Part shown: positions 21,567 through 21,831 of the stretch, piece after piece
Position numbering within the stretch: position 1 is the stretch's first letter
Layout: every line of letters starts with the position of its first letter
Origin: a virus
Taxonomy: Duplodnaviria; Caudoviricetes
Strand: one strand, 5' to 3'
Length of the DNA: 64,000 bases
Virus record (IMG/VR): IMGVR_UViG_3300042539_001740
Position numbers and translations under genes: made by a program
Notes under the pieces: model-generated
Told to the model about the DNA's origin: nothing
The model's input: only the letters and a program-made list of their open reading frames with translations
The model's database searches: none

Positions 21567-21674
21567 ATGAAAAATTTCTTCAAACATATTAACATATCGG
21601 TTCAGCCACAATTTAGTAATTGTTGGTCAAAACCTAGTGTTTGTAATGGTTGGGGAAATTCTATAGAATTATAA
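21567..21674 (+). CDS. Putative leader peptide MKNFFKHINISVQPQFSNCWSKPSVCNGWGNSIEL
   Basis: A-rich start; followed by a terminator, boxA and the first tRNA; contains GGTTCAG complementary to the terminator 5' arm. Confidence 0.65.
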   Translation: MKNFFKHINISVQPQFSNCWSKPSVCNGWGNSIEL

Positions 21675-21698
21675 TTGTTAATAATTTTTTGATAGTAG

Positions 21699-21730
21699 AA
21701 CCCTGAACCATAAAGTTCAGGGTTTTTTTT
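21699..21730 (+). terminator. Attenuator terminator upstream of the tRNA array
   Basis: AACCCTGAAC-cataaa-GTTCAGGGTT followed by a T run. Confidence 0.85.
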
Positions 21731-21742
21731 GTTCATTGACAT
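21731..21742 (+). promoter_or_regulatory. boxA-like antitermination site GTTCATTGACAT (identical copy at 27650-27661)
   Basis: Identical 12-mer directly before two tRNA clusters; resembles the rrn boxA consensus. Confidence 0.65.
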
Positions 21743-21758
21743 CGTGGTAAAATAATAC

Positions 21759-21831
21759 TCCCTCTTGGTATAATGGTTGATTACATCAGATTTTGATTCT
21801 GAGGATGGTGGTTCGATTCCATCAGGGGGAA
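21759..21831 (+). tRNA. tRNA-Gln(UUG)
   Basis: Cloverleaf; TCAGA-ttTTGat-TCTGA; GTTCGATTC. Confidence 0.92.

Follow-up and report, generated by a model that had tools for sequence, protein, structure and literature searches.

The uncultured phage recorded in IMG/VR as IMGVR_UViG_3300042539_001740 was analysed over a stretch of 64,000 nucleotides (nt), here called the window, on which all coordinates are counted. Its first block of tRNA genes (block 1) is headed by a compact module composed of a short open reading frame (ORF), an intrinsic terminator, a boxA-like element and the gene for tRNA-Gln, and this module, a candidate transcription attenuator, is the subject of the present analysis. 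An original prediction, made from the letters of the window, had proposed that a leader peptide and a boxA gate the transcription of the phage tRNAs. The parts that it named are present: the 35-codon ORF (21567-21674, + strand, 35 amino acids), the strong terminator that it placed at 21699-21730 (a stem-loop at 21697-21726 with 8 T at 21723-21730), a boxA-like sequence after the terminator (GTTCATTGACAT, 21731-21742) and, after both, the tRNA-Gln gene (21759-21832). The array was also said to follow; tRNA-Gln does follow the box, but tRNA-Phe does not start until 540 nt later, at 22371.

Relatives were collected from IMG/VR, metagenome contigs and lake viromes with three probes, namely the neighbouring protein, a tRNA-Gln pattern and a leader pattern; a scan of IMG/VR with a pattern of the box alone gave at least 119 matches, mostly due to chance, and the patterns based on the tRNA and on the leader were used instead. 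Full word share with the window was found in 14 lake-water metagenome runs, and blastn of 20800-22500 against the GenBank phage collection gave no match. The neighbouring DUF2828/DUF7788 protein led to IMG/VR contigs at 85-94% identity (five lineages checked). Altogether the module was recovered in 16 distinct variants and in 6 variants of an eighth lineage (about 22 variants in 8 lineages), and the order of short ORF, terminator, box and tRNA-Gln is the same in all of them; a box and a tRNA-Gln gene lie downstream of every leader retrieved by the leader pattern. The genes upstream vary among lineages, with a 204-codon gene inserted in one and two 172-codon genes in another. The original prediction had suggested aligning the regions upstream of related tRNA arrays, and when this was done the short ORF and the terminator proved to be conserved across the 8 lineages.

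The ORF has 28-35 codons in all 8 lineages and lies directly upstream of the tRNA genes. Its ATG is fixed, in an A-rich context, codons 1-20 are without insertions or deletions (indels) and codon 20 always encodes Trp, while the tail past codon 20 is variable and contains frame-shifting indels among lineages. Within the first part, codons 2-10 vary freely inside a restricted set of amino acids and codons 11-20 are conserved at the protein level, with synonymous changes at Ser11, Gln13, Pro14 and Cys19. The stop codon lies 0-20 nt past a conserved internal element, region 2, in all variants and despite the indels of the tail. The terminator has a stem of 10-12 base pairs, which contains G+C, and a run of 8 T; its stem-loop is the strongest terminator-like site of the + strand in 19500-34000, and in 15 distinct relatives all of its pairs are kept (100% paired), one of them by a compensatory change. 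The features of the locus are collected in Table 1.

Table 1. Features of the leader module, of block 1 and of the second unit, with positions on the window
Feature	Position	Strand	Remarks
Leader ORF, 35 codons	21567..21674	+	Present in all 8 lineages (28-35 codons)
Region 1, codons 2-10, core AA[A/C/T]CATAT	21570..21596	+	5' strand of the predicted long-range helix P1
GGTTCAG of the original prediction	21599..21605	+	Complementary to the terminator arm in the window's lineage only
Inner hairpin P2, within codons 13-21	21605..21627	+	Compensatory rearrangement, CAATT/AATTG vs CAAA/TTTG
Region 2, frame-independent element ATGGTTNNGG	21646..21655	+	Predicted to pair with region 1 or with the terminator 5' arm
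A/T-rich spacer hairpin, stop codon to terminator	21674..21696	+	Folds in most lineages, inside the 2:3 helix
Intrinsic terminator	21697..21730	+	5' arm 21699-21708 (region 3, to 21711 for 2:3), 3' arm 21715-21724 (region 4), T run 21723-21730
boxA-like GTTCATTGACAT-CGTGG	21731..21747	+	12-mer GTTCATTGACAT at 21731-21742
tRNA-Gln(UUG), first gene of block 1	21759..21832	+	Rfam 60 bits
Canonical Bacteroidota promoter TTG-N18-TAACTTTG before tRNA-Phe	22263..22291	+	Independent entry of RNA polymerase inside the block
Rest of block 1 in the window: Phe, His, Pro, Met, Ile, Lys, Val, Cys, Trp	22371..24884	+	
Second unit	26972..27100	+	23-codon ORF 26972-27043, 3' end GGAGATGG, terminator 27071-27100
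Second copy of GTTCATTGACAT	27650..27661	+	22 nt lie between it and tRNA-Asp; 4 nt past the -7 box of a canonical promoter (27638-27645)

Pairing segments of the leader transcript

Region 2, ATGGTTNNGG, lies in the variable tail of the ORF and is kept while its flanks vary with indels. It stands in frame 2 in most lineages, in frame 0 in three and in frame 1 in one, so that all three reading frames are represented and the conservation concerns the nucleotides, not the encoded residues. The element pairs with the terminator 5' arm and the first bases of the loop (21702-21711), with a duplex energy between -11.7 and -14.1 kcal/mol in each of the first 16 variants and between -10.9 and -12.9 kcal/mol in the eighth lineage, where arm and element have both changed: there CCCTGGAC is matched by GGTTCAGG, and pairs lost at one end are regained at the other. 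It is the best partner of the arm within the leader in 9/9 variants scanned (7/8 lineages), and dinucleotide shuffles match the observed value in 2-11% of trials per lineage. On the alignment of the relatives (A4) this 2:3 pairing has 91.7% of cells paired, and sliding the partner lowers this to 18-57%; one pair is changed on both sides, which equals the count of the terminator itself, and a change of the arm is compensated (CTAAACC with GGTTTAG). The 2:3 helix is exclusive with the terminator, as is expected of an antiterminator.

A second partner of region 2 is found at the start of the ORF. In the minimum-energy fold of the leader alone, for every lineage folded, ATGGTTNNGG is paired with codons 2-10; the core of this 1:2 helix is AA[A/C/T]CATAT with ATATGGTT, and the flanking pairs are lineage-specific. 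The core is present in the RNAalifold consensus and has 89.5% of cells paired, against 30-41% when slid. Moreover, the third base of codon 4 (TCA/TCG, synonymous) co-varies with the element (GGTTT/GGTTC) between the relatives L135 and L137. The inner hairpin P2 is rearranged among lineages in a way that preserves the reading frame (Phe-Ser-Asn vs Ser-Asn-Phe), and it may act as a pause or spacing hairpin.

The effect of a ribosome was examined in folds in which it was modelled as a masked stretch of 28 nt. Nearly all lineages form the 2:3 helix when the A site is anywhere in codons 5-20, and a ribosome on the stop codon leads to a terminator with 8/8 pairs in every lineage. The stop codon is thus placed where a terminating ribosome would mask region 2, although this masking is marginal at a distance of 20 nt, as in the window and in L141. 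Taken together, the regions are predicted to form the full 1:2, 2:3 and 3:4 layout of an attenuator of the trp type.

The original prediction had assigned the role of antiterminator to another site, GGTTCAG in leader codons 11-13 (21599-21605). Its perfect complementarity to CTGAACC at 21703-21709 is real, but a conserved role is not borne out by the relatives: the duplex has -11.1 kcal/mol only in the window and in one near-identical contig, two close relatives have -8.8 and -7.3 kcal/mol, the values of the remaining lineages range from 0 to -4.7, and the differences at the site are synonymous or third-position changes or conservative codon changes. The pairing does not go beyond chance or lineage history and fails the test applied to the 2:3 helix, and this site was rejected as antiterminator.

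The stable fold of the leader (z = -3.45 for the window), together with the conservation of P1 and P2, could also be taken to indicate a structured non-coding RNA of about 170 nt that ends at the terminator and in which the ORF is incidental. We consider this highly improbable in view of the fixed ATG in its A-rich context, the 20 codons free of indels, the compensated 3-nt shift of P2, which remains in frame, the synonymous changes at third positions and the stop codon that always follows region 2; moreover, no Rfam family fits the leader, the best being rli42 with 25 bits against a gathering score of 80.

Leader codons, tRNA block 1 and the second unit

The evidence that links the leader to what lies downstream comes from the amino acids that it encodes. 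Relatives have in block 1 also tRNAs for Asn, Arg and Ser, so that the block across the family serves 13 amino acids (Gln, Phe, His, Asn, Arg, Ser, Pro, Met, Ile, Lys, Val, Cys and Trp). Its first tRNA is Gln at every locus where the start is seen, and its last two are Cys-Trp in the four lineages for which the locus extends to the end. No tRNA for Glu, Tyr, Gly, Thr, Leu or Ala was called in block 1, and the sole Asp call is a doubtful 95-nt tRNA-Asp(atc) in L278.

Leader residues 2-20 belong to this set in 19/19 positions in 6/8 lineages (P = 2e-5 each), and in 17/19 and 18/19 in the remaining two, against a background in which the 13 amino acids make up 56.7% of the phage proteins; the P values are not independent across lineages. 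The same residues cover 11-12 of the 12 kinds other than Met, including the rare Cys, Trp and His (conditional probabilities 0.03 and 0.002; joint values about 6e-7 to 4e-8). In L001 the comparison of the leader with the block of that locus alone also gives 19/19. The tail past codon 20, in which a stalled ribosome would cover region 2, is near background, with 58/89 residues in the set, and among the 313 ATG-initiated ORFs of at least 25 codons in a six-frame translation of the window a score of 19/19 recurs just once, in a low-complexity repeat of Ser and Ile. The codons of the leader thus correspond to the product that would be controlled. An earlier interpretation of Gln13-Pro14-Gln15 as a dedicated sensor of tRNA-Gln was dropped in favour of a multivalent one, because the leader matches the whole block.

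No co-variation was found between the composition of the leader and the loss of tRNAs across lineages; the single case that goes in this direction is L003, which has no Val in the leader and no detected tRNA-Val. The blocks themselves change quickly: the leaders of L136 and L160 are nearly identical to that of L151, yet on one side block 1 has 11 tRNAs and on the other only Gln, Pro, Met, Cys and Trp, which shows rapid gain and loss of phage tRNA genes. Other tRNA-like sequences were noticed as well. In a close relative of the window, block 1 includes a tRNA (L149, 3862-3938) for which ARAGORN gives a four-base anticodon (gcaa) and which may be frameshift-suppressor-like or degenerate, and in the window two matches to the tRNA family at 30356-30426 and 31589-31695, the second of 107 nt, were given by Rfam alone (46 and 34 bits) and missed by ARAGORN.

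A second unit of similar build lies further downstream. Its GGAGATGG can pair with the 5' arm of its terminator, in the same 1:2, 2:3 and 3:4 topology, its ORF has 4 Met, and it is conserved in the further IMG/VR loci that were found, with a canonical promoter downstream. Among the 22 residues after the start, 16 are Asp, Glu, Met, Tyr, Gly, Thr, Arg or Leu (P = 0.01), the amino acids of the tRNAs that follow this unit. In L273 a promoter, a boxA-like GTTCATTGAAAT and presumably the tRNAs come immediately after the second unit.

These sets bear on the possibility that the module is an attenuator that does not sense codon supply, either because the leader encodes an arrest peptide (Ser-x-Gln-Pro-Gln-x-Ser-Asn-Cys-Trp) that answers a small molecule or a factor, or because a protein binds the RNA of P1 and P2. 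His7, Ser11, Pro14, Gln15, Cys19 and Trp20 are invariant, as in arrest peptides, and hairpin P2 is conserved with a compensatory change. However, either version leaves the two-way match between leader set and tRNA block unexplained, the same logic recurs in the second unit with a complementary set of amino acids, and codons 2-10 vary freely within their set, so that we hold this explanation to be rather improbable.

The boxA-like element and the promoters

A strict form of the box motif, GTTC-N-T-[T/A]-GA-[C/A]-A-[T/A], has 2 matches in the 64 kb of the window, both on the + strand, and these stand 28 nt before tRNA-Gln and 34 nt before tRNA-Asp, that is, on the sense strand in the leaders of tRNA genes. 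With respect to the gamma-proteobacterial boxA consensus GYTCTTTAANA (PMC5725501), the E. coli type, the element agrees in 9/11 positions in the window and in 10/11 in the GTTCTTTGACA variants. We found no published boxA consensus for Bacteroidota, and the box was compared with rRNA operons of Flavobacteriales, which were reached through the DnaK protein encoded by the phage.

All the 16S rRNA leaders fetched (17/17, from the genus of Flavobacterium sp. MK4S-17) contain GTTC[A/C/G]TAGACATATTG at a distance of 95-148 nt upstream of the gene. Three complete genomes of the genus Flavobacterium have 24 matches of the motif, of which 22 lie inside rrn operons. Each operon has a leader copy and a spacer copy; the leader box reads GTTC[A/C/G]TAGACAT and the copy in the 16S-23S spacer reads GTTCATTGACATATTG, to which the phage 12-mer is identical in 12/12 bases. 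One of these operons runs from 16S through tRNA-Ile, tRNA-Ala, a hairpin and the box to 23S, which begins 95 nt past the box. These are the places that leader and spacer boxA classically occupy in rrn operons. Other Flavobacteriales have GTTCTTTGAAAATATTG in place of the box of the phage type, so that the match also suggests Flavobacterium as the host genus of this uncultured phage group. In E. coli rrn and in lambda it is established that boxA recruits NusB-S10 and shields the polymerase from Rho (PMC12360218); we infer that the phage box could recruit NusB-S10 in the same way. The TTGACA contained in the box was considered as a -35 element and ruled out, because the -10 element would fall within the tRNA.

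Two side observations may be added. A PAS/GAF histidine kinase and a full-length DnaK are encoded at 985-3108 and 5509-7440 of the window, on the same contig as the phage genes, and since no Bacteroidota DnaK is more than about 70-73% identical to it, this DnaK seems to be phage-borne and not part of a host flank. In one of the comparison genomes of the genus Flavobacterium a 16S rRNA gene has, about 770 nt upstream and on the opposite strand, a Flavo-1 RNA (L255, 653-732; Rfam RF01705, 80.7 bits).

As to how transcription reaches the module, no terminator-like site was found on the + strand upstream of the leader back to 19500, where the scan started, and the polymerase therefore probably arrives from the preceding genes. 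None was found between 21726 and 27071 either, so that the two terminators bracket a unit that contains block 1. A scan for sigma-70 promoters was uninformative (69 sites against 67 expected). The window has no canonical promoter between the terminator and tRNA-Gln. The gap between tRNA-Gln and tRNA-Phe holds a hairpin (21881-21927), a 40-codon hydrophobic ORF on the minus strand and a canonical Bacteroidota promoter; about 380 nt of it (21833-22212) are skipped in the contigs of three runs and absent from most relatives, and seem to have been inserted recently, downstream of tRNA-Gln and upstream of the promoter of tRNA-Phe. The minus-strand ORF within it has a weak PHROGs match to a holin (E = 0.39).

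Promoters of the host type precede tRNA-Phe, in all lineages examined, and tRNA-Pro, and three lineages have one after the terminator. With such promoters, and with codons 11-20 conserved at the protein level, one may ask whether the ORF is an ordinary small phage gene with a functional peptide, whose terminator ends the upstream operon, the tRNAs being transcribed from promoters of their own and the pairings serving to stabilise the mRNA. This we regard as unlikely. The C-terminal third of the peptide shifts in frame and length while the nucleotide element inside it is kept in three frames, that element is complementary to the start of the ORF and to the terminator arm in every lineage, and the amino-acid set of the core matches the tRNA block (P about 2e-5) and that of the tail does not. 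A search of PHROGs gave no match for the leader peptide of either unit; the peptide is too short for a search by homology.

RNA libraries were available as assembled contigs only, which are unable to show transcript ends or levels, and they were not used as evidence. A metatranscriptome contig of a relative spans 21503-21710 and ends inside the terminator, contigs with tRNA-Gln start at 21745 and 21749 in two studies, and no contig from an RNA library extends across the terminator into the tRNA; a single run, of uncertain kind, spans everything. At most these contigs give a weak hint of termination and of a processed or separate 5' end near 21745. One RNA-library contig spans 21391-21552. The stretch between the DUF2828 gene and the leader (21200-21520) contains three paralogous hairpins with the common motif TTCAGCAA, whose stems differ and are yet complementary (ATGATTC/GAATCAT, GGATAG/CTATCC and AGAATGA/TCATTCT), and the hairpins are conserved in relatives (alignment A1).

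A candidate attenuator of phage tRNA genes

The reading that we favour, and that we consider reasonably probable, is that the module is a ribosome-mediated (leader-peptide) transcription attenuator joined to a boxA of the host type and placed at the head of the first tRNA block of the phage. RNA polymerase would arrive from the upstream genes and transcribe the short ORF, and the RNA of region 1 (codons 2-10) would pair first with region 2. A ribosome translating at normal speed would open the 1:2 helix, reach the stop codon and cover region 2, the 3:4 terminator would form and transcription would end at the T run. If the ribosome were held anywhere in the first 20 codons, region 2 would be free to pair with the terminator 5' arm and the polymerase would read through. 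Because these codons specify almost only the 13 amino acids of the block, what is sensed would most likely be a delay in decoding just those codons for which the block supplies tRNAs. A transcript that reads through would start with a copy of the host rrn boxA, and the loading of NusB/S10 would, by analogy with rrn, keep the polymerase going over the untranslated tRNA genes. As a consequence, the phage would probably make more of the block tRNAs when ribosomes read their codons slowly. The translation of the leader, the read-through caused by stalling, the binding of Nus factors and the physiological trigger are what we infer from the arrangement of these parts.

Several points weigh against this interpretation. 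The lineages are closely related (85-94% identity in the neighbouring protein, in the five checked), so that the counts of conservation are not independent. In the equilibrium fold without a ribosome the 1:2 helix is preferred in about half of the lineages and the 2:3 helix in the rest, and in the latter the termination of an untranslated transcript would depend on the kinetics and order of folding. L135 has lost most block-1 tRNAs and its leader is unchanged, and the Ser11 codon of the leader (TCA/TCG) is not read by the phage tRNA-Ser(GCU). A promoter feeding the leader was not found, the sequence upstream having only 7-of-8 matches to TAnnTTTG.

The promoters inside the block are a further difficulty. 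Canonical promoters of the host type (TTG-N18-20-TAnnTTTG) are found there at 22284 and 22700, and L143, L148 and L156 have between terminator and box an insert of 45-50 nt with a perfect -7 box (TAACTTTG or TAGTTTTG) and a TTG 19 nt upstream, which gives tRNA-Gln its own promoter; a degenerate form of this insert, GAACTTTG, was noticed in L003. Thus one feature of classical attenuators, the absence of an independent promoter before the controlled genes, is lacking for tRNA-Phe and, in those three lineages, for tRNA-Gln. It follows that the attenuator is not the sole route to the tRNAs and can only add to a basal supply; one may speculate that it is used at a stage when promoters of the host type are not.

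With these points considered, the support for an attenuator at the level of sequence is good. The general idea of the original prediction, a leader attenuator and a boxA before the phage tRNAs, is upheld by the conservation of four segments, by the match of amino acids and by a box identical to that of rrn, and its specific GGTTCAG antiterminator is replaced by region 2.

Leader-peptide transcription attenuators are known from amino-acid operons, for example trpL, hisL, thrL and the leader of ilvGMEDA. The mechanism of hisL has been summarised (PMC12360218). The predicted anatomy of the phage module is that of the trp/his/ilv type, with 7/8 testable defining features found. Like those leaders it has a short and presumably translated ORF, exclusive 1:2, 2:3 and 3:4 pairings, an intrinsic terminator, a stop codon at which the finishing ribosome would cover segment 2 and leader codons that name the controlled product, and its sensing would be multivalent, as in thrL and ilvL. 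Unlike them, it would control phage tRNA genes and not biosynthetic enzymes. It also has single codons for 11-12 amino acids spread over 20 codons where classical leaders have runs of one or two, and it lies between operons, with a boxA downstream and on top of internal promoters, whereas a classical leader directly follows its promoter. As far as can be judged from the arrangement described here, the new elements with respect to classical attenuators would be the phage tRNA target, the spread multivalent set of codons, the position between operons, the fusion with a boxA of the rrn type and the internal promoters.

The box has its own parallels, the rrn boxA (the NusB-S10 site) and the boxA of lambda nut. 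Besides the identity of the phage 12-mer with the spacer box of the genus Flavobacterium, phage and rrn boxes alike stand in the transcribed leader of untranslated RNA genes; the former precede tRNA genes and the latter rRNA genes, and the 3' flank is CGTGG or AGAGG in the phages and ATTGA in rrn. Unlike in E. coli rrn and lambda, the binding of Nus factors would in Bacteroidota itself be presumed. Stringer et al., in eLife in 2020, reportedly described that a boxA upstream of CRISPR arrays protects their long untranslated transcripts from Rho; that case likewise has an rrn boxA put to new use before a long array of non-coding genes, but this is an array of the host and, unlike that of the phage, has no attenuator. 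T-box riboswitches also control read-through by the status of tRNA, but they bind uncharged tRNA directly and have no leader ORF, and an Rfam scan of 19000-35000 at E up to 1 gave no T-box. We found no publication on leader-peptide attenuation of tRNA genes or on a boxA before phage tRNA genes, within an incomplete coverage of the literature.

The tRNA genes of phages are usually regarded either as a constant addition to the tRNAs of the host or as an answer to defences that cleave tRNA, and to our knowledge little is known about the control of their expression. A wider and more tentative possibility is that the two units constitute a feedback loop on decoding capacity, in which a probe of 20 codons would open the terminator, the rrn boxA would give processivity, block 1 (10-13 tRNAs) would be resupplied and a second probe with the complementary set would serve the remaining tRNAs; depletion of host tRNAs or their cleavage by an anticodon nuclease can be named, as a speculation, as an example of a trigger. 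If the attenuator is real, the phage would measure decoding itself and adjust its tRNA supply, and the logic of trp and his would be extended from the synthesis of amino acids to tRNA genes. Moreover, two tRNA units are preceded by an exact copy of the spacer box of host rrn operons, which suggests that Nus antitermination may have been captured by a phage of Bacteroidota.

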